A stretch of 11,887 nucleotides of DNA, taken from positions 1 through 11,887 of IMG/VR virus record IMGVR_UViG_2541047953_000003; one strand, written 5' to 3'. The notes under the pieces were generated by a model, which had not been told where the DNA came from, ran no database searches, and saw only the letters and a list, made by a program, of their open reading frames with translations. This stretch comes from a virus (lineage: Duplodnaviria; Heunggongvirae; Uroviricota; Caudoviricetes). Shown in pieces: positions 1,567 through 11,887 of the stretch (positions within the stretch are counted from its first letter, which is position 1; every line of letters starts with the position of its first letter). A program made the position numbers and the translations under genes.

Positions 1567-2499
1567 ATGGACAACGACAAAATTGATCAACACAGCGACG
1601 AAATTGAAGTTGAGAGCGAAGAAAAAGAGCGCGGCAAAAAAATAGAAATAGATGAAGACCGACTCCCCTCCCGGGCGATGGCAATTCATGAGCATATCCG
1701 CCAGGATGGTGAAAAAGAGCTGGAACGCGACGCAATGGCGCTACTGTGGTCAGCCATTGCGGCGGGTCTGTCGATGGGCGCTTCGTTACTGGCAAAAGGG
1801 ATATTTCATGTCGAACTGGAAGGTGTGCCGGGCAGCTTCTTGCTGGAGAATCTCGGTTATACCTTTGGTTTTATTATCGTCATTATGGCCCGCCAGCAAT
1901 TATTTACCGAAAATACCGTGACTGCGGTACTACCCGTCATGCAAAAACCGACAATGAGCAACGTCGGCTTACTTATACGGTTATGGGGCGTCGTGCTGCT
2001 GGGTAATATTCTCGGGACAGGTATTGCGGCGTGGGCATTTGAATATATGCCTATCTTCAATGAAGAAACTCGCGATGCATTTGTCAAAATCGGCATGGAT
2101 GTGATGAAGAACACCCCCAGCGAGATGTTTGCCAACGCGATCATTTCCGGCTGGCTGATCGCCACTATGGTTTGGATGTTTCCTGCAGCGGGTGCGGCAA
2201 AGATTGTGGTGATTATATTGATGACCTGGCTTATTGCCCTGGGTGACACCACCCATATCGTGGTCGGTTCTGTTGAAATCCTCTATCTGGTGTTTAACGG
2301 TACGCTGCACTGGAGCGATTTCATCTGGCCCTTCGCACTACCTACTTTAGCGGGGAACATCTGCGGCGGCACCTTTATCTTCGCGTTAATGAGTCATGCA
2401 CAGATTCGTAACGACATGAGCAATAAGCGTAAAGCAGAAGCACGCCAAAAAGCAGAACGTGCGGAAAACATTAAGAAAAATTATAAAAACCCGGCATAA
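1567..2499 (+). CDS. yfdC: Formate/nitrite transporter (FNT) family inner-membrane protein YfdC
   Basis: 310-aa ORF with multiple hydrophobic helices after an acidic N-terminus, preceded by a purine-rich RBS (GAGAAGAGA). Size and position between mlaA and argW match yfdC. Confidence 0.85.
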   Translation: MDNDKIDQHSDEIEVESEEKERGKKIEIDEDRLPSRAMAIHEHIRQDGEKELERDAMALLWSAIAAGLSMGASLLAKGIFHVELEGVPGSFLLENLGYTFGFIIVIMARQQLFTENTVTAVLPVMQKPTMSNVGLLIRLWGVVLLGNILGTGIAAWAFEYMPIFNEETRDAFVKIGMDVMKNTPSEMFANAIISGWLIATMVWMFPAAGAAKIVVIILMTWLIALGDTTHIVVGSVEILYLVFNGTLHWSDFIWPFALPTLAGNICGGTFIFALMSHAQIRNDMSNKRKAEARQKAERAENIKKNYKNPA

Positions 2500-2557
2500 A
2501 TGGCGAGGGTTTAAGCAATCGAGCGGCAGCGTACTTACCCCGCACTCCATTAGCGGG

Positions 2558-2563
2558 TATACT
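2558..2563 (+). promoter_or_regulatory. Candidate -10 element (TATACT) of the argW tRNA promoter
   Basis: TATACT sits 11 nt upstream of the mature tRNA 5' end and is followed by a GC-rich discriminator-like stretch (GCCGC). The -35 is weak, so the call is tentative. Confidence 0.3.
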
Positions 2564-2574
2564 CATGCCGCATT

Positions 2575-2649
2575 GTCCTCTTAGTTAAATGGATATAACG
2601 AGCCCCTCCTAAGGGCTAATTGCAGGTTCGATTCCTGCAGGGGACACCA
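2575..2649 (+). tRNA. argW: tRNA-Arg, anticodon CCU
   Basis: 75-nt sequence folding as a cloverleaf: acceptor stem GTCCTCT/AGGGGAC, anticodon loop CTCCTAA (anticodon CCT), T-loop GGTTCGATTCC, encoded 3' CCA. Followed directly by an integrase gene, the classic argW island arrangement. Confidence 0.93.
2620..2635 (+). repeat. 16-bp segment of argW (TTGCAGGTTCGATTCC) that recurs exactly at 11652..11667; candidate att core, attL copy
   Basis: Exact 16/16 direct repeat found by eye. Its position inside the tRNA T-arm next to a P4-type integrase is typical of a tRNA-targeting att core. Confidence 0.6.
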
Positions 2650-2739
2650 TTTATCAGTTCGCTCCCATCCGTACCAGTCCGCAAAATCCCCTGAACATCA
2701 AGCCTTCCGTATATTCACAGTTCGTAATGGTTCGCGTCA

Positions 2740-2810
2740 GATCGTTGACAGCCACACTCCATGACGGGTAAAAAGTGGATAAAATAATTTTACCCACCGG
2801 ATTTTTACCC
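2740..2810 (+). promoter_or_regulatory. Candidate intS promoter and recombinase/RDF binding region (attL arm)
   Basis: TTGACA at 2745..2750; TAAAAT at 2780..2785; inverted repeat GGGTAAAA (2765..2772) / TTTTACCC (2789..2796), with TTTTACCC repeated again at 2803..2810 abutting the ATG. GTTCG motifs recur at 2626, 2657, 2719 and 2730. Confidence 0.35.
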
Positions 2811-3968
2811 ATGCTCACCGTTAAGCAGATTGAAGCAGCAAAGCCGAAAGAAAAACCATACCGCCTACTCGATGGTAATGGTCTGTACCTTTATGTCCCT
2901 GTATCCGGAAAAAAGGTCTGGCAGCTTCGCTACAAGATTGACGGTAAGGAGAAAATCCTGACCGTAGGAAAATATCCGCTAATGACTTTGCAGGAGGCAA
3001 GGGATAAGGCATGGACTGCGAGGAAAGACATCTCGGTTGGCATCGATCCGGTAAAGGCGAAAAAGGCTTCGTCTAACAACAATTCATTTAGTGCGATTTA
3101 CAAGGAATGGTACGAGCACAAGAAGCAAGTCTGGTCAGTAGGCTATGCAACTGAACTTGCCAAAATGTTTGATGACGACATTTTACCCATCATCGGCGGT
3201 CTTGAGATTCAGGATATTGAGCCGATGCAACTGCTGGAAGTAATCCGCAGATTTGAAGATCGCGGTGCAATGGAGCGAGCCAACAAAGCCCGCAGAAGAT
3301 GCGGCGAGGTTTTCCGTTACGCTATTGTCACCGGAAGGGCTAAATATAACCCAGCACCTGACCTTGCTGACGCCATGAAGGGATACCGCAAGAAGAACTT
3401 CCCGTTTCTTCCTGCAGACCAGATCCCGGCATTCAATAAAGCACTAGCAACATTTTCAGGAAGTATCGTATCGCTCATTGCCACCAAGGTTTTACGCTAT
3501 ACAGCCCTAAGAACGAAAGAGCTTCGTTCCATGCAATGGAAGAACGTCGATTTTGAAAACAGGATTATCACCATCGACGCCAATGTGATGAAGGGACGCA
3601 AAATTCATGTGGTTCCTATGTCAGACCAGGTGGTTGAACTTCTCACTACGCTAAGCTCAATCACTAAACCAGTGTCAGAGTTTGTTTTTGCCGGACGCAA
3701 CGATAAGAAGAAGCCAATCTGCGAGAACGCGGTGCTACTTGTGATCAAACAAATCGGCTATGAGGGTCTGGAAAGCGGTCACGGATTCAGGCATGAATTC
3801 AGTACGATTATGAACGAGCACGAATGGCCTGCTGACGCTATTGAGGTGCAACTGGCACATGCCAACGGCGGATCTGTGCGTGGGATTTACAACCATGCTC
3901 AGTATCTCGATAAGCGCAGAGAAATGATGCTGTGGTGGGCGGACTGGCTGGACGAAAAGACACAGTAA
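2811..3968 (+). CDS. intS: Tyrosine recombinase, P4-type prophage integrase (IntS-like, 385 aa)
   Basis: ORF immediately downstream of argW. The C-terminal region has the tyrosine recombinase signature (HGFRHEF ... VQLAHANGG ... RGIYNHAQY). Start chosen at MLTVKQ (2811); an in-frame ATG at 2775 would add 12 residues. Confidence 0.85.
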   Translation: MLTVKQIEAAKPKEKPYRLLDGNGLYLYVPVSGKKVWQLRYKIDGKEKILTVGKYPLMTLQEARDKAWTARKDISVGIDPVKAKKASSNNNSFSAIYKEWYEHKKQVWSVGYATELAKMFDDDILPIIGGLEIQDIEPMQLLEVIRRFEDRGAMERANKARRRCGEVFRYAIVTGRAKYNPAPDLADAMKGYRKKNFPFLPADQIPAFNKALATFSGSIVSLIATKVLRYTALRTKELRSMQWKNVDFENRIITIDANVMKGRKIHVVPMSDQVVELLTTLSSITKPVSEFVFAGRNDKKKPICENAVLLVIKQIGYEGLESGHGFRHEFSTIMNEHEWPADAIEVQLAHANGGSVRGIYNHAQYLDKRREMMLWWADWLDEKTQ

Positions 3969-3976
3969 TCAAAAGC

Positions 3977-4000
3977 GGCAGGCCACATAAAAAGCCTGCC
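3977..4000. terminator. Hairpin between convergent intS and the UmuD'-like gene
   Basis: Stem GGCAGGC (3977..3983) / GCCTGCC (3994..4000) with a 10-nt A-rich loop. The U-tract is weak on both strands. Confidence 0.4.
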
Positions 4001-4318
4001 TTATACCGCTACGCTGTCACTTCTCACATCGATGATGGTGTGTGTCACCACGCCGGCGACAGTGATATCATCCAGGGCCTCGCCTTCAATCGCTTCGCCG
4101 TCTTCGGTTATCAGCGACCGCCCTCTCAACGTGGCAAGTTCCGTCCCGCCGCCGTGCTGGATCAGAACCTGACTACCCTGCCTTGGTTTCAGGGAGATAT
4201 CCAACACAACGTAACCGCCAGACCGCTCGAAAACTAGCGTGTTTGGGCCTACATTGCAGATCGCGTTAACAGACAGACGCTGCTCAACGTAGTCAGACGC
4301 CGGAGACGGGAACGCCAT
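4001..4318 (-). CDS. UmuD'-like protein (S24 LexA/UmuD fold), genetically pre-truncated and lacking the GDSM serine motif
   Basis: N-terminus MAFPSPASDYVEQR matches the UmuD segment GFPSPAADYVEQR that immediately follows the RecA-mediated cleavage site. The C-terminal half aligns loosely with the UmuD beta-core, but no GDSM-type serine motif is present (RSGGY instead). Start codon overlaps the stop of the upstream small gene (TGATG). An in-frame ATG at 4351 is the alternative start. Confidence 0.7.
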   Translation of the reverse strand: MAFPSPASDYVEQRLSVNAICNVGPNTLVFERSGGYVVLDISLKPRQGSQVLIQHGGGTELATLRGRSLITEDGEAIEGEALDDITVAGVVTHTIIDVRSDSVAV

Positions 4319-4557
4319 CAGATGACCCTCCCCATGTTGGCCATCATCCACAGCCTGTTTTCGCTATGCTCTGCCGTTTTGTCGACAAAGTACGTCTGCT
4401 CTCTTGATATCCAGTTGTTAGCCTCCTCTTCTGAAAAATGGATACCCCTCCGCTGTAGTTCGGAGATGAAAGAATCAGTGTAAAGGTATTGATAACCTTT
4501 AGGATTTATAGAAATGGAGGCTCTGAAAGCCTCCGCGATGGCGTTACGTCTGATCAT
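4318..4557 (-). CDS. Small hypothetical protein (79 aa from ATG; 83 aa if the TTG at 4569 is used), first gene of the SOS-box operon
   Basis: ORF directly downstream of the LexA box and translationally coupled to the UmuD'-like gene. I recognise no family. The arrangement recalls the small impC gene preceding impA in plasmid impCAB operons; this is an analogy by position only. Confidence 0.5.
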   Translation of the reverse strand: MIRRNAIAEAFRASISINPKGYQYLYTDSFISELQRRGIHFSEEEANNWISREQTYFVDKTAEHSENRLWMMANMGRVI

Positions 4558-4575
4558 GTCTCTTACCAAACAAAA

Positions 4576-4591
4576 CTGTATTTATATACAG
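4576..4591 (-). promoter_or_regulatory. LexA (SOS) box CTGTATTTATATACAG overlapping a candidate promoter
   Basis: Matches the E. coli consensus CTGT-N8-ACAG with an AT-rich centre. It lies 19 bp upstream of the small-gene ATG. On the transcribed strand a -35 TTGACT (complement of 4612..4617) sits about 17-18 bp upstream of a -10 that overlaps the box. Confidence 0.7.
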
Positions 4592-4622
4592 TATTGTTTG
4601 CGTTAATCAACAGTCAATCATT

Positions 4623-6722
4623 TTATTGAATAAAAGTGTAAGGAGAAGCGATGGTATATTGTGCATTAGCCCCTATGGGAGTATCGAAAATCCACACCTC
4701 ACTCAAACCATCTTTTGTAATTGACGCGTTAGGTCCCCCATGGCTGCATCCATAAAGATATAACTTTGCTTTACCAGTTAAGTCGGATCCTTGCCCAGCA
4801 GTAAAGCAGGCGCCACCGATAAAGTCTGCCCTTGAACTATCATGCGAGTAACACCCAAAGTTAGCTGTAACCGTGCCATCATGAACATCGTGAACTACAC
4901 GGCCAAACGTTCCGTAGTATTCACCGTTCAAACGTATCCCTACAGTTCCGTCATGAGCGGTAGAGCCGTTATTATTTGGTAAATTATCAAAACCACTCCA
5001 ACGGCCAGTACAACCAATTTCGATAAACCACGGCTTTATCCCAAGACCATTCTGATCGGCATGATAGTTAAATGCGTCCTGCATCCCGTATTGAGCAGTG
5101 CAATTCTGCATAATACAGTTTACACCTAAAGAGTTAAAGGCATTCCTTGTCACAGATAAATCAAATATACAATTTTTTGCATATAAGTATCCTTTTTTAC
5201 CCGCCGTTTGAACCTCAGCCTGAAACCCCCTAAAGCTGTCCTTAAAGTGAATATTTTCAATATAAACTTTGCTATTATCCTGAATTCTTCCATTAGTCAA
5301 TTGAAGAACAAGCCGTGAATTAGAATCAGGAGCTCGCCCGTCAAAAAGATGAATATACAGCGTATTCCCTGTTTTATAGGATGAGCCAGGTGTTGAAACG
5401 CAGTCGGCAAGGCTGGCTACGGGAGTTAGAACCTGAGCATGTCCATAACTATCAAGATTGGCATAGTCAACAACGTTTAGAACAAGATTACCTGTGTACT
5501 GGTATACGCCAGCGCTTCCCTGTGCCGCCCACGTTGCAGCCGGTTCAACAGTGCTCAGAATTGGTGTTCCATCGTATCCGATGAAATCGAGCTCGCGGTC
5601 AACTACGCTAACATTCCATGTAAAATCACGGGTATATTCCATCCCGCCTTTTATCATGATTGTCCTTGCTGCCGGGGTTTTCTCAATGGCATATTTTATA
5701 CGCTGGAATGGTTTAGCCTGCGTGCCGTCTCCAGTCGTATCACTACCGTTAGTGCAGTCCACATAATATGTTGTCCCGCTGGATGCCTTCTTCACAGCCA
5801 CATCATAATCAGTCCAATATCTAAGCGTGCCATCAGAACGAAGTGCGCAGTAAATTGGAATCTGCTCTTCTATTCTTCTCAGCTCACCTGGAAACCATGG
5901 TATTGATGATGGGCATCCGGCAATTCCAAAAGCACTTTTATTTGCATTGCCAATTAATTCTATAAGAGTCCCTGATTTAATATGAGCAATAAGTAGCGAG
6001 CCGTCAAATGGATATCTGTCACGCGCTTCATATGTTCCGTCTGATTTAACAACAATACATATTGTGCTTGATGTTGTTGTGACATTCTGATTTTGACCAA
6101 TAACACTAACGCCATTAAAAGAATAAAGACCGCCAGAAAAGCTTATAGTTGATGATCCTGCAACTGGTTTCCATTGAGGAGATATAATCACGCCTCCTAA
6201 CGATCTGTATAATCTATCAAGAGCTGTATAAACGGTGCTGTCCCTATAGCCAACCAAGGTGGCTCCATTTGACTCTCCAAGCGCTGAGAAATCTACGCTT
6301 ATTGAGCTTATTGCATCGTATACATTGGTGTCTTTAAATCCTACTAATTTCGCGCCATCTGGCTGTGAAAGATCATATCTTAGCTGATCTGGTGAATATC
6401 TTAAGACATTGGAGAAGTAAAATTGCTGTGCTCCATATGCATCATACACAGCCATGCTATGGCTTTGAACTGTCACGAATTTGGCAATCTGTCCGTTATA
6501 TACAGGATAACCAGCGGCGTTAATGATGATTGGCTGCGAAACAGGAACGTGAGAACCATCCTCATTCTCCACATAAACCTGAATCTGGTTTTCAGGATTT
6601 ACCGGGTCAGTGTCAATTTTACCGATATAAATTTTACCATTGGCAACCGCTTTAAAAGAACGCGCCATAGTGAAGAGTTGCGAAGGCATGCTTACTACAA
6701 CATTGGCTGTAATGTCTGTCAT
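4623..6722 (-). CDS. Phage tailspike protein (P22 gp9-type head-binding domain plus divergent receptor-binding region)
   Basis: 699-aa ORF. The first ~110 residues ([11 protein letters not shown]...[23 protein letters not shown]...) match the conserved N-terminal domain of P22-like tailspikes as remembered. The rest differs from P22 gp9 and contains a beta-helix-type start motif ([15 protein letters not shown]...TIMIKGG). RBS GGAG upstream. Confidence 0.85.
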
Positions 6723-6779
6723 TTAATTTGCTCCAGATAGAAGGAAACGCCGCAGCGTGGCTACGGCAATGCGTCATTG

Positions 6780-6794
6780 AGACCACAGTGGTCT
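6780..6794. promoter_or_regulatory. Candidate Mnt operator: perfect 7-1-7 palindrome AGACCACAGTGGTCT
   Basis: Perfect palindrome between divergent mnt and tailspike, immediately upstream of a candidate mnt promoter (-35 TTGTGG 6797..6802, -10 TATGAT 6820..6825). Resembles the P22 mnt operator half-site as I recall it. A second small palindrome CAATGCGTCATTG lies at 6766..6778. Confidence 0.5.
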
Positions 6795-6857
6795 TATTGT
6801 GGATATAACCAGTAGATCATATGATGCCGATCCACTTACAAAAGTGAGGCATCAAGA

Positions 6858-7109
6858 ATGGGAAGAGATGACCCGCAATTTAATCTGCGGCTACCTTACG
6901 AATTAAAGGAAAAACTAAAACAGCGAGCCAAATCCAATGGCCGCTCTCTTAATTCAGAATTAGTTCAGATAGTGACTGATGCTGTATCAAAGCCATCCAA
7001 AATTTCAGGCTATCGAGACGATGCGGAACGCATCGCTGATGAGCAGTCTGAACTTGTTAAGAAGATGGTGTTTGATACGCTGAAGGATTTGTACAAAAAA
7101 CCCACCTGA
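6858..7109 (+). CDS. mnt: Mnt-type repressor (Arc/MetJ ribbon-helix-helix family)
   Basis: 83-aa ORF with strong similarity throughout to P22 Mnt as remembered (RDDP.FN.R.P...EKLK.RA..NGRS.NSEL.QIV.DA.SKPS...GYR.DAER.ADEQSELVKKMVFDTLKDLYKK). RBS GTGAGG 8 nt upstream. Confidence 0.85.
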   Translation: MGRDDPQFNLRLPYELKEKLKQRAKSNGRSLNSELVQIVTDAVSKPSKISGYRDDAERIADEQSELVKKMVFDTLKDLYKKPT

Positions 7110-7122
7110 TGGTGGGTTCCAT
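7101..7122. terminator. Intrinsic terminator between convergent mnt and the lipoprotein gene
   Basis: Stem CCCACC (7101..7106) / GGTGGG (7111..7116) with loop TGAT containing the mnt stop codon. On the - strand the hairpin is followed by TTTTTTG, making it strong for the lipoprotein gene; the + strand U-tract is weaker. Confidence 0.7.
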
Positions 7123-7125
7123 TTA

Positions 7126-7545
7126 TTAGTCTTGCTTTGTGGACGGTATAAGGGATGCATTTGCCTCTTTAGGCTTCAAGGTATACATCCCACCATTAAA
7201 TGGATCTACAGCAAGCCAACCAATTAACCCACCAAACACAAGGTTTCCACCAATATACCAACCATTAGCATTGGCTTTTATTGGCATGGTAACTGGTTCG
7301 TACCCATCCTTCTCCATAGTGATCTGGTAGCTCTTTTTGCCAAAATAACTACCATCTGACTTGGCAAGAGTTACTCCTTGCGGGGTCTTACCTTGCGCAA
7401 CAATCACGCCTGATTCGTCTTTTACCTTAAAGCTCGCACCGGAAGGATTGCTGTTCACTTGCACAAGCTGTGTTTCGTCACCAACAATAGTTGCGCACCC
7501 AGATAACATGATAACGCCAGCAACGACGCCGATAATCCTCTTCAT
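7126..7545 (-). CDS. Putative prophage lipoprotein (139 aa) with a PEGA-like beta region and a glycine-rich hydrophobic C-terminus
   Basis: Signal peptide with lipobox (VIMLSGC). The middle region has a PEGA-like pattern (VQVNSNPSGASFKV...GKTPQGVTL...GYEPV), and the C-terminus has a Gly-zipper-like hydrophobic segment (YIGGNLVFGGLIGWLAV). Has its own terminator. The domain call is from pattern only. Confidence 0.6.
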   Translation of the reverse strand: MKRIIGVVAGVIMLSGCATIVGDETQLVQVNSNPSGASFKVKDESGVIVAQGKTPQGVTLAKSDGSYFGKKSYQITMEKDGYEPVTMPIKANANGWYIGGNLVFGGLIGWLAVDPFNGGMYTLKPKEANASLIPSTKQD

Positions 7546-7616
7546 ATTACTTTCCGTTTTGTTAGAATCAGAAAGATCTTAATAATAAAAAGTATTTTCG
7601 TGAAGATATTGTCGAT

Positions 7617-7631
7617 TGAGTTAATAACTCA
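7617..7631. promoter_or_regulatory. Perfect 7-1-7 palindrome TGAGTTAATAACTCA in the divergent lipoprotein intergenic region
   Basis: Perfect palindrome about 50 bp upstream of the + strand lipoprotein start, inside an AT-rich divergent promoter region (7546..7679). Operator-like; the binding protein is unknown. Confidence 0.35.
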
Positions 7632-7679
7632 TTTACACCCAACAGTGCCATGATGGCAAAGATAAGGAGAGTTAATCAT

Positions 7680-8165
7680 ATGAAAAAATCACTGTTAATT
7701 ATCCCGCTTCTGCTGGCAGGGTGTGCAAAGATTAGCGACTATCAGGCAAGTTGCGAACAACGCTATCCAAAGCTTAGCGATATGGCTAATTGCCTTGATG
7801 CTAGCGTGAAGAGCGACTCACGCATGGCATCAGCACCAACACCTAAGTTATATGTCCTTGCTGCGAAGATGCTCGGGCAAGGTGTCGATGATGGCAAGAT
7901 AAGTGACGCGCAGGCAAGACTTGAGCTTCAGAATCTTTATGTTCAATTACAAAGCCAAGAACAAGCCCAACAAATAGCGCAAAGCCAAGCATTCCAGCAG
8001 GCTTTATTGAATTATCAGGCTGTAAACACTATGCAAGCGATCGAGCAAAAAGCGAGACAGCCTGTTATAACTCAACCATATCCAACACGAGTTGACACTT
8101 ACACAAACTGCAATTCAGGGTTTGGAAATACAGTCACATGCAACAGTAGCAGTAACATCAGATAA
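7680..8165 (+). CDS. Putative prophage lipoprotein (161 aa) with a Gln-rich, probably coiled-coil region
   Basis: Start taken at MKKSLLIIPLLLAGC (lipobox LAGC) with RBS AAGGAGA 9 nt upstream. The in-frame ATG at 7650 is less likely. The mature part contains a Q-rich heptad-like stretch (LELQNLYVQLQSQEQAQQIAQSQAFQQALLNYQ). I recognise no family. Confidence 0.6.
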   Translation: MKKSLLIIPLLLAGCAKISDYQASCEQRYPKLSDMANCLDASVKSDSRMASAPTPKLYVLAAKMLGQGVDDGKISDAQARLELQNLYVQLQSQEQAQQIAQSQAFQQALLNYQAVNTMQAIEQKARQPVITQPYPTRVDTYTNCNSGFGNTVTCNSSSNIR

Positions 8166-8255
8166 CAATCAGCAAAGGTATCGCCTATGCAGAGGGATAC
8201 GATAAACCTCGCGTTCTACATATTTGGTTTTTGCACGTTCATGGTGTTTGAAAAG

Positions 8256-10649
8256 CTATTCTGACAACGCATCAGACTTAGCCCCCTGCATCATAGCGTT
8301 AATTGCCTTTTGTGCCTGCTGCATGGCTTTCTCAAACGCTGTTGAACCGCGTGGGGTGTTTGCCATTCGGAGCATTGCATTTCTGAATGGCTCGCTCTCA
8401 TAGGCGCGAGTAAGAAGTCCGTAGCTTACTGCTGCGCCAGTTGTCGCCGGGTTCATTGCCGTCCCATACCCAATTATGAACGGGATAGTTTGCTGCCCTG
8501 TGGGTGTTGTTACTGCCGCTTTTGCAGCCTGCTGCGTGGATTGCAGGTAGTTTTTTAATCCTTTCAGATAAGCAGCGTCCTGCCCCTTAAATGTGATGCC
8601 AGTCTGTTTTTGCAGGATGTTAAGCTGCCGAAGGAACTGGTCAGGGGATCCGCCAGATTTCTCCATCGCCTTTCCAATGATGCCATTGCGCATTTGCGCC
8701 CTGCCAACACGACCAACTGAGTTATACAGCGTCTTAATTTCCGATTTGTTCTTGCTGAATAGCATGTTGTTGACAACTTCCGGTGTCAGGTCGCCTTTCA
8801 TGAGAACATTCTTCAGCCTGGTATTCTTTAGTTTCGCCGCTTCGTCAGCGTAGACGGCATTGGCCTGCTGATATTTACGGAGAGTATCGTTGCCAAGATT
8901 CTGACCAATGGCACCATTGATATCGTCTGTCATCGCCTTGTAAACGCGCTGAATGGCAGCATCGGAACGGTTTGGCAACACTGGTCGTTCCCCCTTCACG
9001 TCCATTCTGAACTGGCTGCGCAGATCGCTTAATTGCTTCAAATCCAGATTTACCGGACCATCAGGACCAGCATTGCGAACAAGCTCATCACGATAGGACT
9101 GAAGTTTTGAAATAGTCTCGTTATCGGCGACCTTACCAAGCTTCTGCAGATTAGATATTTCTGTATCAATCTGCTGAATTGCTCGCGCAGGATGAATGTT
9201 TACTCCAGCCATAGCATTCTGAACCTGCTCCAGTCGATTACCGGCGGCACGACGAATTCCTGATGTTTTCGCTTTAAGGCTGTCAATAACAACCGCTGGA
9301 TCATACTCACCGAATTTATCGGCAAATCTCTGCACCAACTGGCTTCTCGCTTCCTGTTGCGTTGCTCTCATTCCGCTTGTGCCAGCCAGGGGGATATTTT
9401 CTGCTGTAGTCTGCGCCATTTTCCCGACGCGGGAAGTAGGCTGTAACAGGTCTGTGGTGTGCAGAGGAACTCCTTCACGCTCTGCAAACCTGATAGCCTG
9501 TTGAGCTTCTGGTGCTATCGAACCACGAACACCACGATAAGCAGCACCTAATCCACGTCCGGCAGCGTTAATAGCACCGCCAGCCAGCACACCAACGCCT
9601 AAATCGGTGGCGAGTGCTTCCGCATCATCTTTCGCACTGTTTGCAGCAAGTGATCCAACTGCGTTTTCTGCTAGAAGACGAGTTGCACCCTGAGCAATTC
9701 GACCAGCAAGTGTTGGTGCCTGTGTTGCCGCTCTCTCAACGCCAGCAGGAGTGAGGTAAGGCAATGCTTCAGCAAATACCCTTCCCTCTGTCGTTTGTGG
9801 AGTCAGCGCGCCTTGCTGAAGGCCAAAGTCCTGCTCTAATCCCTGCGTTGTTACTCGTGGTGCTGGTTGATATGTACCATCGCCAATGCCGAGTTTACCT
9901 CCAGCCCAAGCCGCCGCGCTTGTTACAGCATCAGTGAGTTCAGCAGGTATGTTCGCTACGTTGATTCCTGCCTGTAGTAAGCCGCGCCCGGTTTCAGCAA
10001 GTCCATTACCAAGGTCAGACATTATTCCGCCTTGCTGCTGAACAGGTTTCGGTGCGACAGAACTTACGGGTTGAGGTGGCTGCTGACTGGCTGCCTGCTG
10101 CTCAATCTGAGCAAATGGATTATTTGGGTCTGACTGCACGCCTGATGCCGATACTTGTTCGGATGACTGTGCTTCCAGTTGTGCAAACGGGTTGTTAGGG
10201 TCTTGCTGAGGATGTACCTTTGCAGAGGTGGCGCGCTGTTCGACTGTTGAGTCTGTCACCGGGTCACCCGCCCATTGAGCAAAGCGATCATCAACGTAAC
10301 CGCGGCCTTCAGGTCCTGGCGTATATTCACCACGCTTTGCCTTCATAACGTTGCCGGGACCGTCGTGATAAGCCTGAAGAGCGTCACGCCAGTTACCAAA
10401 CTGCTGGTACATCTTTGCCAGATAGCGCGCGCCAGCGTCAGCCTGATATTCGGGGTTTTGCATTTGCTCATCGGTATAACCCATATCACGCCATGTCCCA
10501 GGCATGACCTGAGTCAATCCTACAGCCCCGGCGGAGCTTACTGCGGCAGGGTTGTAAGAAGACTCCTTGGCACCCAGTGCAGTCATCAACCCTTCTGGCA
10601 CACCGTAACGTGCGCCAGCCTGCTCTAACAAATCACGGTAATTAGCCAT
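8256..10649 (-). CDS. Phage ejection (internal virion) protein with an N-terminal lytic transglycosylase (SLT) domain
   Basis: 797-aa ORF. The N-terminus carries family-1 lytic transglycosylase motifs (ALGAKESSYNP with catalytic Glu; AVGLTQVMPGTW; AGARYL). It is followed by a tandem peptide repeat (DPNNPFAQLE / DPNNPFAQIE) and a long Ala/Gly/Gln-rich body. Its position upstream of the immI-like region and tailspike corresponds to the last ejection gene of P22-like phages. Confidence 0.75.
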   Translation of the reverse strand: MANYRDLLEQAGARYGVPEGLMTALGAKESSYNPAAVSSAGAVGLTQVMPGTWRDMGYTDEQMQNPEYQADAGARYLAKMYQQFGNWRDALQAYHDGPGNVMKAKRGEYTPGPEGRGYVDDRFAQWAGDPVTDSTVEQRATSAKVHPQQDPNNPFAQLEAQSSEQVSASGVQSDPNNPFAQIEQQAASQQPPQPVSSVAPKPVQQQGGIMSDLGNGLAETGRGLLQAGINVANIPAELTDAVTSAAAWAGGKLGIGDGTYQPAPRVTTQGLEQDFGLQQGALTPQTTEGRVFAEALPYLTPAGVERAATQAPTLAGRIAQGATRLLAENAVGSLAANSAKDDAEALATDLGVGVLAGGAINAAGRGLGAAYRGVRGSIAPEAQQAIRFAEREGVPLHTTDLLQPTSRVGKMAQTTAENIPLAGTSGMRATQQEARSQLVQRFADKFGEYDPAVVIDSLKAKTSGIRRAAGNRLEQVQNAMAGVNIHPARAIQQIDTEISNLQKLGKVADNETISKLQSYRDELVRNAGPDGPVNLDLKQLSDLRSQFRMDVKGERPVLPNRSDAAIQRVYKAMTDDINGAIGQNLGNDTLRKYQQANAVYADEAAKLKNTRLKNVLMKGDLTPEVVNNMLFSKNKSEIKTLYNSVGRVGRAQMRNGIIGKAMEKSGGSPDQFLRQLNILQKQTGITFKGQDAAYLKGLKNYLQSTQQAAKAAVTTPTGQQTIPFIIGYGTAMNPATTGAAVSYGLLTRAYESEPFRNAMLRMANTPRGSTAFEKAMQQAQKAINAMMQGAKSDALSE

Positions 10650-10811
10650 TTACTGCCCCAAAGATGGAAGATATCCGTAGCGATTAATGAAGTCGATTGA
10701 CAGCTCGGGGTGCTGCTTCAGGTAATGGTCATGTATGAAGACGGTGAGATGTGGTCTGCAATGTGGAATGGCAATCGCTGGGATGATGGCACCGAATATC
10801 CGGATCCGCAC
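10650..10811 (-). pseudogene. Possible 3' remnant of the upstream ejection-protein gene (no start codon); marks the deletion junction
   Basis: The - strand frame ending at TAA (complement of 10650..10652), directly abutting the ATG of the 797-aa gene (TAAATG), is open for only 53 codons and contains no Met. It overlaps a + strand small ORF (10725..10868), so one of the two is not real. Confidence 0.3.
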
Positions 10812-10864
10812 TCAGTTACGCACTGGCGTGAAATGCCAGCAGCGCCGAAACAGGAGGTGAAGTC

Positions 10865-11077
10865 GTGAGCAAGCACATCATCAAATATGACTATCGAGAG
10901 GGAGTTAAACTTGCAAAGCATGAAATAGAAACGTGGTGCGGACATGCGCCACAATTTTCAGACTGGTTGTTTCAGGATGCTCAGCACGCGCTGTTGAGCA
11001 TTGAGCAGGGAACGCTGCTTGTTCCTTGCAAGAATTGTCTGGCAGCAATCATCAAAACGGCGCAGGAGGTGAAGTGA
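10865..11077 (+). CDS. Small hypothetical protein (70 aa, GTG start), possible Cys/His metal-binding motif
   Basis: Strong SD (CAGGAGGTGAAGT) 8 nt upstream of the GTG. Contains CGH ... CKNC. Its stop overlaps the start of the next gene (TGATG). Confidence 0.5.
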   Translation: MSKHIIKYDYREGVKLAKHEIETWCGHAPQFSDWLFQDAQHALLSIEQGTLLVPCKNCLAAIIKTAQEVK

Positions 11078-11361
11078 TGGACTCCTTCGCGAAATATACG
11101 ATCATTGACTGGATAGCATTCCTTCAGGTTTTGCTCATCTGGTTTTATATGGCTTACAGGAGTGGACAGTGGATTGTCAGTGTAGCCTGTAGCAAGGGAT
11201 GGCGTTGGTGGAACAGAAAGAATAAAAAAGCACTGGCATTGGATTCGTTTTACGAAGCATTCAATCTTAACAGCCTTCAGCCTGGTTCTGTCATTGTAGT
11301 CACCACTCAAAGCGGCATGACGATACAAATTCACAAGCCAAAGGAGGAAGGTCGTGGCTAA
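11077..11361 (+). CDS. Small hypothetical membrane protein (94 aa)
   Basis: Start at MDSFAKY, preceded by the same 13-nt CAGGAGGTGAAGT element. One N-terminal hydrophobic helix (IIDWIAFLQVLLIWFYMAY). The longer ORF from 11026 is less likely. Confidence 0.5.
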   Translation: MDSFAKYTIIDWIAFLQVLLIWFYMAYRSGQWIVSVACSKGWRWWNRKNKKALALDSFYEAFNLNSLQPGSVIVVTTQSGMTIQIHKPKEEGRG

Positions 11362-11423
11362 CCTGCAACTTGCCGTCAAAGGTGAATAACAATCCTCGCA
11401 TTCACTGGGATTTCTTTTATCTG

Positions 11424-11450
11424 AACTCGCTACGGCGAGTTTTGTTTTAT
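11424..11450 (+). terminator. Candidate hairpin terminator after the membrane-protein gene
   Basis: Stem AACTCGC / GCGAGTT with loop TACG, followed by TTTTGTTTTAT. Confidence 0.4.
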
Positions 11451-11461
11451 GGAGATGATAA

Positions 11462-11629
11462 ATGCACTTCCGAGTCACAGGTGAATGGAATGGAGAGCCA
11501 TTCGACAGGGTTATCGAAGCCGAGAACATCAGCGACTGCTATGACCACTGGATGCTGTGGGCGCAGATAGCACATGCAGACGTAACCAATATTCGAATTG
11601 AAGAACTGAAAGAACACCAAGCCGCCTGA
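11462..11629 (+). CDS. Small hypothetical protein (55 aa), prophage right-arm gene
   Basis: ATG preceded by GGAG with 7-nt spacing; ORF MHFRVTGEWNGEPFDRVIEAENISDCYDHWMLWAQIAHADVTNIRIEELKEHQAA, followed directly by a strong terminator. It is below the ORF-track size cutoff. It may correspond to the small ypdJ-type ORF next to torI in K-12, but I do not recognise the sequence. Confidence 0.45.
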   Translation: MHFRVTGEWNGEPFDRVIEAENISDCYDHWMLWAQIAHADVTNIRIEELKEHQAA

Positions 11630-11641
11630 TGGCGGTTTTTT
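11621..11641 (+). terminator. Rho-independent terminator
   Basis: Stem CCGCC (11622..11626) / GGCGG (11631..11635) with loop TGAT containing the stop codon, followed by TTTTTTATT. Confidence 0.75.
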
Positions 11642-11651
11642 ATTGCCTGAT

Positions 11652-11667
11652 TTGCAGGTTCGATTCC
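11652..11667 (+). repeat. Second exact copy of the 16-bp argW segment TTGCAGGTTCGATTCC; candidate att core (attR or internal junction)
   Basis: 16/16 identity with 2620..2635. It lies between a terminator and the RBS of the excisionase gene. The sequence downstream of the repeat is not tRNA-like. Confidence 0.55.
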
Positions 11668-11686
11668 CTATTCGGAGATAGCACTC

Positions 11687-11887
11687 ATGCAACACGAACT
11701 ACAGCCTGATTCACTGGTTGATTTGAAATTCATCATGGCCGATACTGGCTTCGGTAAAACCTTCATCTACGACCGGATTAAGTCCGGCGACCTGCCAAAA
11801 GCCAAAGTTATCCACGGGCGAGCAAGATGGTTATATCGTGACCATTGTGAATTCAAAAATAAGCTCTTAAGCCGCGCCAATGGGTAA
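11687..11887 (+). CDS. torI: Excisionase / recombination directionality factor (Xis/AlpA winged-helix family), TorI-like
   Basis: 66-aa ORF with the AlpA/Xis-type pattern (FIMADTGFGKTFIYDRIKSGDLPKAKVIHGRARWLYRD); RBS GGAG 9 nt upstream. Size and position at the far end of an argW prophage from intS match KplE1 TorI as I recall it. Confidence 0.65.
   Translation: MQHELQPDSLVDLKFIMADTGFGKTFIYDRIKSGDLPKAKVIHGRARWLYRDHCEFKNKLLSRANG

Follow-up and report, generated by a model that had tools for sequence, protein, structure and literature searches.

The ejection (E) proteins of phages P22 and Sf6 are packaged in the virion and released ahead of the DNA, and gp16 requires its cognate gp20, since P22 virions are non-infectious when gp16 alone comes from Sf6 (PMC10461980). 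In the Salmonella phage P22 the gene order is 7-20-16 followed by the tailspike region, as in the phage type studied here, and the neck protein gp4 is credited with the muralytic activity of the virion (Moak & Molineux 2004; tabulated in PMC5380687). The largest ejection protein of T7, gp16 (internal virion protein D, 1318 aa), also has an N-terminal SLT domain, with E37 named as the catalytic residue, and cleaves peptidoglycan locally during genome entry (PMC8954989). Mutants of T7 gp16 at E37 show a conditional defect.

Here, we analyze an 11,887-nt stretch of tailed-phage DNA (the window) and describe within it an intact gene for a gp16-type ejection protein that carries such a domain. The explanation that we consider very probably correct as a whole is that this SLT-bearing E protein gene has been stranded in a young prophage remnant at argW, where it most probably stays silent and serves the host no function.

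An ejection protein with an N-terminal SLT domain

The 797-aa reading frame that a preliminary description had placed at this locus, leaving its strand unstated, is real: it opens with ATG at 10649 and extends for 797 codons to 8256, on the minus strand. The same sequence is found exactly in intact prophages, where it has precomputed PF01464 and PF26808 hits, so chance is not an issue for the reality of the frame, and an identical sequence is already listed at NCBI as "lytic transglycosylase domain-containing protein". Residues 108–797 match phrog_770, 'DNA transfer protein' (E=3e-239); together with homology to Sf6 gp13 and P22 gp16, this agrees with the earlier reading of an internal virion or ejection protein with an N-terminal family-1 lytic transglycosylase. 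Judged by its sequence, it comes from a temperate P22-like phage (Lederbergvirus) and is the gp16-type E protein in an SLT-bearing mosaic form, hereafter SLT-gp16.

The N-terminal domain scores 88.6 bits against the Pfam SLT profile (PF01464; gathering score 21.3; E=2.7e-25), covering profile positions 2–110 of 117. The catalytic Glu had been proposed to lie in AKESSY, an assignment said to fail if the motif were missing on alignment; it is present, as E29 within GAKESSY (codon 10563–10565). E29-S30 of GAKESSYNP align to E478-S479 of E. coli Slt70, of which E478 is catalytic, and E29 aligns to E37 of T7 gp16. GLTQV and AYHDGPG stand opposite GLMQI and AYNAGPG of Slt70 with one substitution each, the family-1 motifs in the Blackburn & Clarke classification reportedly including G-L-M-Q and A-Y-N-x-G. 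By profile, catalytic Glu and motifs, residues 7–110 are a predicted family-1 lytic transglycosylase (GH23) domain. No enzymatic test of such an SLT domain in any P22-like phage was found in the literature searched.

What follows this domain had been described as a long low-complexity body, which holds for residues 131–380 but not for residues 381–797, whose composition is ordinary. The biased part is Gln/Pro/Ser-rich at residues 131–210 and Ala/Gly-rich at residues 211–380. The linker (20% Q, 12.5% P, 12.5% S) holds DPNNPFAQ(L/I)E twice, although TRF found no tandem repeat in its DNA, and it closes an N-terminal module shared with Sf101 gp13. An AF2 model built on a 20-sequence alignment is poor, at a mean pLDDT of 47.5 and a pTM of 0.28, and offers no more than an all-helical prediction, with residues 126–458 of low confidence. 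A PDB sequence search matched the SLT domain alone and returned no solved relative of the gp16 body, while an NCBIfam search returned SLT matches only, all sub-threshold. Neither a signal peptide nor a hydrophobic segment was found in the 797-aa protein, its KD hydropathy never exceeding 1.36 in a 19-residue window, and PADLOC was negative for gp16, both lipoproteins, Mnt and a 105-aa ORF.

The 90% cluster of the protein has 1295 members, the SLT+gp16 architecture also occurs in E. coli, Cronobacter, Klebsiella aerogenes and Kosakonia, and the N-terminal allele alone is present in 70 of 5426 complete E. coli genomes. Among P22-like phages and prophages the SLT-gp16 fusion is common, routinely annotated and already known.

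For a working phage, a mechanism can be extrapolated from homologues, the role of the body resting on homology to the P22 and Sf6 proteins, whose structures are unsolved. SLT-gp16 would be packaged in the phage head and, after adsorption, expelled via the tail ahead of the DNA. The SLT domain would then cut glycan strands locally, a job presumably shared with T7 gp16, and so let the gp20 periplasmic conduit cross the peptidoglycan; the helical body, at the inner membrane and with cognate gp20 and gp7, would complete the DNA channel.

Table 1. Features of the window, with coordinates, strand and supporting evidence.
Feature	Position	Strand	Evidence
tRNA-Arg(CCU) argW with attL core CTGCAGGGGACACCAT at 2635-2650; left remnant end	2575..2650	+	ARAGORN, Rfam
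Integrase IntS, KplE1/CPS-53 type	2775..3968	+	Pfam Phage_integrase, Phage_int_M, Arm-DNA-bind_3; PGAP 'prophage integrase IntS' in homologous loci
Tailspike, P22-type head-binding domain; downstream of gp16 in late operon	4623..6722	-	Pfam Head_binding E=3.8e-65; tailspike PHROGs
Intact gene for predicted gp16-type ejection (DNA transfer) protein with N-terminal SLT domain, 797 aa	8256..10649	-	ORF list and translation; phrog_770; IME10; intact prophages
gp16 body, residues 208-797, Sf6 gp13 type, all-alpha in model	8259..10028	-	Sf6 gp13 97%, P22 gp16 35% identity
Gln/Pro/Ser-rich linker, residues 131-207	10029..10259	-	Composition; Sf101 gp13 identity; AF2 pLDDT <50
Predicted SLT (family-1 lytic transglycosylase) domain, residues 7-110	10320..10631	-	Pfam SLT; Slt70 and T7 gp16 alignments
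Gene 20 remnant (gp20 / Inj_translocase homologue), last 24 codons and stop	10650..10726	-	IME10 and intact-prophage identity
Deletion junction, GGTAAT microhomology	10721..10726	.	Three-way alignment: window, IME10, FORC_041 DUF551 gene
DUF551 gene 3' fragment, early-left operon, 5' end deleted	10727..10868	+	Pfam DUF551; FORC_041
Surviving early-left operon end	10865..11887	+	Gene calls in L008; PGAP names in FORC_041 and SCZE5 loci
70-aa ORF	10865-11077	+	
DUF4752	11077-11361	+	
55-aa ORF	11462-11629	+	
Excisionase TorI, 66 aa	11687-11887	+	PGAP torI position in FORC_041, SCZE5; phage matches annotated excisionase

The argW remnant and its deletion junction

The prophage had been called defective, and it is: a deletion of ~33 kb has left a 9.3-kb remnant at argW, the KplE1/CPS-53 site, with the host genes yfdC/argW and dsdC at its two sides. 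The remnant reads attL, intS, tailspike, mnt, two lipoprotein genes, gp16, the junction, a few early-left genes, torI and attR; IntS is transcribed away from argW, and the TorI excisionase lies at the opposite end. The 16-nt attachment core, CTGCAGGGGACACCAT, is placed at the 3' end of argW, which is the only Rfam hit on the window, and equals the published KplE1 core (PMC2951348). It is repeated 74 nt past the window end in contig L008, which matches the window at 100% identity along 9632 bp, has been seen in 5 samples and extends through attR to dsdC-dsdX-dsdA. Two further reading frames were set aside. A 171-aa ORF at the sieA position was dropped as a SieA type, having no similarity to P22 SieA, and is a predicted lipoprotein; a 182-aa minus-strand ORF (10981–11529) was judged spurious, with no family hit and an overlap with the plus-strand early genes.

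Immediately upstream of the SLT-gp16 gene, the stop codon of gene 20 abuts its ATG (TAAATG). A start-less remnant of ~50 codons of the preceding gene had been reported here, and part of it stands: 10650–10726 is truncated gene 20, and its peptide YLKQHPELSIDFINRYGYLPSLGQ* is the C-terminus of the 443-aa PF16928 protein of an intact prophage (L007). The open frame itself spans 53–54 codons (10650–10811), and beyond gene 20 it is the antisense of the plus-strand DUF551 fragment; the interval 10727–10864, included in the range given earlier, is not part of gene 20. The DUF551 fragment covers Pfam profile positions 26–68 of 68 (E=3e-10) and shares 99.5% nucleotide identity with the DUF551 gene of E. 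coli FORC_041.

Comparison with P22-like phages had been suggested as a way to define the breakpoint, and it does so: identity to IME10 and to the intact prophages L006–L014, nine contigs with intact late operons, ends exactly at 10726, where the GGTAAT shared by both sides (10721–10726) also ends. Over 10717–10726 the two parental sequences match at 9 of 10 positions, and the two halves of the junction query overlap at query positions 158–167. The intact prophages that encode the identical protein have gp7 (PF25688), gp20 (PF16928) and SLT-gp16, then the tailspike. In phage Dewey the two sides of the junction map to 12253 and 19733 of 40352 bp, which indicates that ~32.9 kb is missing from the remnant. 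These alignments argue for one microhomology-mediated internal deletion of ~33 kb that fused the end of gene 20 to the 3' end of the DUF551 gene. The lost segment reached from gene 20 back across the regions for late functions, lysis, replication and immunity and on into the early-left operon.

Only the exact-protein look-up that led to contig L008 recovered the junction. An exact search of species-representative genomes with a junction 38-mer did not find it, and in a megablast search of 5426 complete E. coli genomes each half was present but the two were never joined, which points to one young lineage.

Age of the deletion and alternative readings

The SLT-gp16 gene differs from the intact-prophage copies by 0–1 nt in 2394 nt, and positions 3885–10726 as a whole are 99.88–99.98% identical to intact prophages. 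At this divergence there has been no time for decay, and the intactness of the gene reflects recency, not selection. A crude consensus scan of the minus strand over 10650–11887 found no sigma-70-like promoter. dsdC is encoded on the strand of the SLT-gp16 gene and directed into attR; read-through from it, or a weak promoter, might conceivably be a source of transcription. The late and early regions are deleted wholesale, leaving the remnant without gp20, gp7 or capsid for delivery. The gene would thus be a stranded passenger of a recent deletion, its ORF intact by default and most probably silent and functionless for the host.

The preliminary description took another view, in which the gene is specially retained while its partner is lost and offers the host a lytic or envelope-remodelling activity. 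Such domestication, for lytic, autolytic or remodelling purposes, could appeal to the intact ORF with its conserved catalytic motif and to the occurrence of the remnant in at least 5 sequenced samples. However, with 0–1 nt of divergence intactness is expected without selection, and in the independent argW remnants of SCZE5 and YJR_complete the gp16 gene is truncated, so that no special retention is evident; a junction absent from all 5426 complete genomes likewise speaks for a single young lineage. Lacking an upstream promoter-like site, partner proteins, and any signal peptide or membrane anchor with which to reach the periplasm, the gene lends no support to a host activity, and we regard domestication as very unlikely. 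An action on other phages is quite unlikely too: low-level gp16 from the remnant might be packaged into, or interfere with, co-resident or superinfecting P22-like phages, or the gene might serve chiefly as a donor from which incoming phages obtain E-protein and tailspike modules by recombination. gp16 enters virions independently of gp20, and non-cognate gp16 produces non-infectious particles (PMC10461980); the gene is visibly mosaic, and flanks 99.9% identical in intact phages would allow recombination. Against this, nothing points to expression of the remnant gp16, and recombinational rescue is generic to any prophage remnant and not a function of this gene. In its narrower form, in which dsdC read-through across attR or a weak promoter drives transcription and the product acts in trans on P22-like phages, the idea is highly improbable. 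If true, co-packaged SLT-gp16 could poison non-cognate ejectosomes, a new kind of remnant-encoded interference, or alternatively could complement phages without virion muralytic activity.

Two doubts of a different sort concern the join and the type of protein. A chimeric assembly of gene 20 and DUF551 in a prophage that is really complete would explain why the junction is missing from the complete E. coli and species-representative genomes, but a contig that was assembled independently and seen in 5 samples crosses it at 100% identity and, within 9.3 kb, runs into native host genes at either end (yfdC/argW and dsdC), and a microhomology of 6–10 bp is too short to mislead an assembler while being typical of illegitimate recombination; an artefact is scarcely credible. 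The protein could also be an external tail-associated lysin, since its first 207 aa match phrog_21143, 'lytic tail fiber protein', the name that RefSeq also gives to Sf101 gp13. That name was carried over as an annotation of the SLT module. The body shares 97% identity with Sf6 gp13 and is a homologue of P22 gp16, both established ejection proteins, and the gene sits in the gene-16 slot after gp7 and gp20, which makes a tail lysin extremely improbable. For the host genome the stranded ejection protein gene is of little consequence: the argW hotspot has one more P22-like prophage that is young and in decay. The case illustrates that, as long as a deletion is undated, finding a whole ORF in what is left of a prophage is no evidence of domestication.

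Comparison with related phages and prophages

In the Shigella phage Sf6, gp13 is a gene-16 homologue annotated 'DNA transfer protein' (665 aa), and its residues 76–665 are 97% identical to residues 208–797 here; the gene lies at the matching late-operon position, and the recombination module (intS, torI, argW) is also alike. Its N-terminus is a 75-aa segment without SLT, where the protein described here has instead the 207-aa SLT-plus-linker module. Residues 1–206 of that module are 100% identical to the N-terminal module of Sf101 gp13 (911 aa), whose body is of another gp16 sequence type: the BLASTP alignment is limited to residues 1–377, at 62% identity with 15% gaps, and past residue 377 only weak, chance-level matches occur (E 0.17 or higher). 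Exchange points in the mosaic gene lie near residues 206–225. Casjens & Thuman-Commike 2011 and Casjens & Grose 2016 probably deal with gp16 sequence types and reportedly mention E proteins that bear a murein hydrolase.

The isolated phage IME10 has an unannotated 797-aa ORF that is identical at 790 of 797 positions (99%) throughout its length, and like Sf6 it has the IntS/TorI pair. Related forms are found in the phages Dewey, Huey, APC_JM3.2 and phiKp_30. Unlike the window copy, which lies in a deleted remnant, the genes of IME10 and Sf101 belong to complete phages that have been isolated. Isogenic phages with Sf6-type and IME10-type gp16 would be a clean system for the contribution of a virion transglycosylase.

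More distantly, P22 gp16 (609 aa) aligns over its residues 138–602 with residues 314–787 here at 35% identity (E=6e-78). A profile search finds no SLT domain in it, and the earlier remark that its architecture is different was correct. The likeness drawn earlier to the architecture of T7 gp16 extends to the SLT tip: BLASTP similarity covers residues 2–119 only, at 28% identity, and the ~1150-aa remainder of T7 gp16 (molecular tape, membrane, cytoplasmic hub) yields no BLASTP alignment past residue 119 with E <1, the body here belonging to the P22 gp16/Sf6 gp13 family. A phrog_342 match is confined to residues 3–189 of the 797-aa protein. T7 gp16 is best classed as an analogue by domain shuffling, a functional likeness and not a family member.

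As a remnant, the locus most resembles KplE1/CPS-53, the defective prophage of E. coli K-12, with which it shares the insertion site (yfdC-argW / dsdC), the 16-nt core, IntS and TorI. Excision competence has been shown for KplE1 and, by analogy, may extend to the remnant here. The two are similar in size (10.2 kb for KplE1 and 9.3 kb here), but KplE1 arose by an independent deletion and kept other cargo, while here a P22-like tailspike, mnt, two lipoprotein genes and gp16 survive.

The N-terminal module and the body of the 797-residue protein

The gp16 gene is a 797-codon ORF that runs from an ATG at 10649 to 8256 on the minus strand (ORF list and translation). Residues 7–110 of its product match the SLT lytic transglycosylase domain (Pfam; E = 2.7e-25, score 88.6 bits, cut-off 21.3 bits), and phmmer aligned E29, the Glu of GAKESSY, with the catalytic E478 of E. 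coli Slt70, and GLTQV and AYHDGPG with the GLMQI and AYNAGPG of Slt70. In BLASTP, E29 also aligned with T7 gp16 E37, a residue given as catalytic (PMC8954989). The preliminary description named an SLT domain and a catalytic Glu in AKESSY; both are present, and a check for loss of the catalytic motif found all three motifs aligned with Slt70. On these alignments, the predicted protein qualifies as an SLT family member. The low-complexity body described earlier holds for a Gln/Pro/Ser-rich stretch in which DPNNPFAQ(L/I)E occurs twice (residues 131–210) and an Ala/Gly-rich stretch (211–380), but residues 381–797 are of ordinary composition. An AF2 model is all-helical at low confidence (mean pLDDT 47.5, below 50 over residues 126–458).

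Comparison with other ejection proteins separates the tip from the body. In PHROGs, residues 108–797 matched phrog_770 ('DNA transfer protein', E = 3e-239), and residues 1–207 matched a family that bears SLT and is named 'lytic tail fiber'. Residues 208–797 share 97% identity with Sf6 gp13 residues 76–665, and residues 314–787 share 35% with P22 gp16 residues 138–602. Sf101 gp13 (911 aa) has an N-terminus 100% identical to residues 1–206 and a different body. The isolated phage IME10 carries an unannotated ORF of the same length directly 3' of its gene 20, identical at 790 of 797 residues. Pfam detected an N-terminal SLT domain in Sf101 gp13 and T7 gp16 and none in P22 gp16 or Sf6 gp13. Because of these comparisons, we infer that the protein belongs to the family of P22 gp16 and Sf6 gp13, as a gp16 ejection protein whose short N-terminus was swapped for an SLT-plus-linker module. 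The proposed ejection-protein identity and the architecture unlike that of P22 gp16 are therefore upheld. The T7 gp16-type architecture stands only for the SLT tip, which occupies the same position in both proteins; BLASTP similarity is confined to residues 2–119 and the remaining sequences are unrelated, so that membership in the T7 gp16 family failed at the body.

Other relatives of the gp16 body, P0114, P0117, P0120 (782 aa) and P0118 (776 aa), carry a 97%-identical body behind different N-terminal modules. As PF25688 (P22_gp7-like) or PF05766 replaces SLT before PF26808 in these proteins (precomputed Pfam), the comparison suggests that the gp16 N-terminus is a general module-swapping site.

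The remnant at argW and its deletion junction

A contig (L008; Logan ERR4556436, five samples) is 100% identical to window positions 2256–11887 and runs on past the window end into dsdC-dsdX-dsdA. The 16-mer CTGCAGGGGACACCAT lies at the 3' end of argW (2635–2650) and recurs in this contig 74 nt beyond the window end; it is exactly the att core published for the K-12 defective prophage KplE1/CPS-53 (PMC2951348). The contig identity and the repeated core thus define the element as a 9.3-kb KplE1-type remnant at the KplE1 site, and Sf6, HK620 and CUS-3 have a recombination module in common with it.

Features flanking the gp16 gene in the window
Feature	Position	Strand	Remark
mlaA, yfdC, tRNA-Arg(CCU) argW	left part of window		host DNA
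IntS	2775–3968	+	
P22-type tailspike	4623–6722	-	
Mnt-type repressor	6858–7109	+	Pfam Arc and Repressor_Mnt
Small predicted lipoprotein gene	7126–7545	-	
Small predicted lipoprotein gene	7650–8165	+	
182-aa ATG ORF	10981–11529	-	antisense to DUF4752 and adjoining early genes
DUF551 fragment, 70-aa ORF, DUF4752, 55-aa ORF, torI	right of gp16 gene	+	

The match to IME10 stops at 10726, as do those to nine contigs in which the late operon is complete. Starting at 10717, the window follows the 3' part of a DUF551 early gene at 99.5% identity (E. coli FORC_041 is one genome with this gene), and Pfam bears out the assignment (profile positions 26–68 of 68). GGTAAT (10721–10726) is common to both parental sequences, with 9 of 10 bases matching over 10717–10726, a signature of illegitimate, microhomology-mediated deletion; the comparison with P22-like phages proposed earlier thereby places the breakpoint. 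Gene 20 survives as 74 coding nucleotides and a stop; the encoded peptide, YLKQHPELSIDFINRYGYLPSLGQ, has no difference from the C-terminal end of the PF16928 protein (443 aa) of intact relatives. The start-less upstream frame, previously taken as a ~50-codon remnant of this gene, exists (53–54 codons), but only its last 24 codons are gene 20 and the rest is antisense DUF551 sequence. As the junction sides map to 12253 and 19733 of 40352 bp in phage Dewey, with attP inside the retained arc, an estimated 32.9 kb or so is missing; this stretch took in the genes for head, tail, lysis, late control, replication and immunity and the greater part of the early-left operon. None of the 5426 complete E. 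coli genomes contains the junction.

The mnt gene has no arc or ant partners and faces the tailspike gene start over a 135-bp intergenic region. An HNH_3 endonuclease gene interrupts the stretch from mnt to tailspike in the intact prophage L006, otherwise 99.9% identical (L006 10061–10426); the window and the other relatives lack this insertion. The two lipoprotein genes occupy the sieA/immI place of P22, between gp16 and tailspike, with promoter-like sites at 7508–7586 (+). Their lipoboxes are LLAGC and MLSGC, and they match phrog_6067 and phrog_6823 (function unknown); the gene at 7650–8165 showed no similarity to P22 SieA, and PADLOC matched neither. Both are candidate morons expressed from the prophage, with possible roles in exclusion or in modifying the surface, and would remain functional in the remnant. 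The 182-aa ORF had no Pfam or PHROG match and is probably not a gene.

Survival of the gene and prospects for activity in the host

Compared with the copies that five intact prophages carry, the gp16 gene shows either no nucleotide change or a single synonymous one, and block 3885–10726 is 99.88–99.98% identical between the window and these prophages. Because there has been no time for decay, the intactness of the gene is uninformative about selection, and its survival loses the special meaning given to it. Relative to IME10, 59 codons differ synonymously and 7 non-synonymously, which reflects selection in phage life.

None of the intact prophages encoding identical gp16 sits at argW. On the tailspike side they adjoin a PEBP-family gene and an aminotransferase gene, which we take to be ybhB-bioA in the lambda att region. 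Homology of the window to these prophages stops at 3885, within the last 84 nt of intS (window 3885–3968; prophage L007 12682–12765), a mosaic joint of two integration modules. Other argW remnants are differently cut. E. coli SCZE5 (L004 10255–12258) has an SLT-gp16 gene without its N-terminus and an IS1 adjoining the tailspike. In E. coli YJR_complete (L017 4900–6326) the gene has lost both ends and is joined to an antiterminator N fragment, followed by cscA sucrose genes. Each arose separately, by decay of a P22-like prophage at argW.

A source of lytic or envelope-remodelling activity for the host had also been proposed. P22-type late genes form one long operon under a late promoter dependent on the phage antiterminator, and the deletion removed both promoter and antiterminator. 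A consensus scan found no sigma-70-like site on the minus strand at 10650–11887, and the TAAATG at the gp16 start couples it to gene 20, now without a start; dsdC lies on the gp16 strand and points into attR, and read-through from it is conceivable. The protein lacks both a signal peptide at its N-terminus and any hydrophobic stretch (maximum 19-residue Kyte-Doolittle hydropathy 1.36), and a cytoplasmic product would not reach peptidoglycan. Normal delivery needs the capsid and normal function the cognate gp20, both gone here; Sf6 gp16 alone in P22 is packaged, and the particles are non-infectious (PMC10461980). With no promoter-like site, signal peptide, capsid or gp20, the proposed host activity is unsupported. 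The preliminary description was right on the protein and on the defective prophage, and wrong on the significance of survival and in its expectation of host lytic activity.

Occurrence and proposed role in P22-like phages

The protein and the element are all in databases already under routine names. NCBI lists the exact sequence under the name 'lytic transglycosylase domain-containing protein [Escherichia coli]' (EKG5116115.1 is one entry), and clustering at 90% identity places it in a set of 1295 members. Among 5426 complete E. coli genomes, 70 carry the N-terminal module at 95% nucleotide identity or above, and PGAP gives that same protein name in every case. The PF01464+PF26808 (Phage_P22_gp16) architecture, at 786–815 aa, also occurs in Cronobacter species, Klebsiella aerogenes and Kosakonia; the identical SLT module is in ten phage records, and distant SLT versions are in many podovirus internal and tape-measure proteins. 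The IME10 RefSeq record (NC_019501) has only 27 features, leaving its 797-aa gp16 gene (6001–8394), tailspike and others uncalled. We found no experimental study of this domain from any P22-like phage in the literature searched. The generalisation on the P22-like group in the conclusions of PMC8954989 is true for P22, Sf6, HK620 and CUS-3 but not for the whole group, being contradicted by Sf101, IME10, Dewey, Huey, APC_JM3.2 and many prophages.

In working phages of the IME10/Sf101 type, the protein would be expelled after adsorption and its SLT tip would cut glycan strands locally, as demonstrated for T7 gp16 (Moak & Molineux 2000, as cited in PMC8954989). At the inner membrane, the helical body, along with the flexible Q/P-rich and A/G-rich segment, would then connect with the gp20 conduit; P22 gp16 is described as associating with membranes and promoting DNA transport into liposomes (Perez et al., as cited in PMC10461980). 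PMC5380687 attributes the muralytic activity of the P22 virion to gp4, so an SLT-bearing gp16 would be a second way of meeting this need among P22-like phages.
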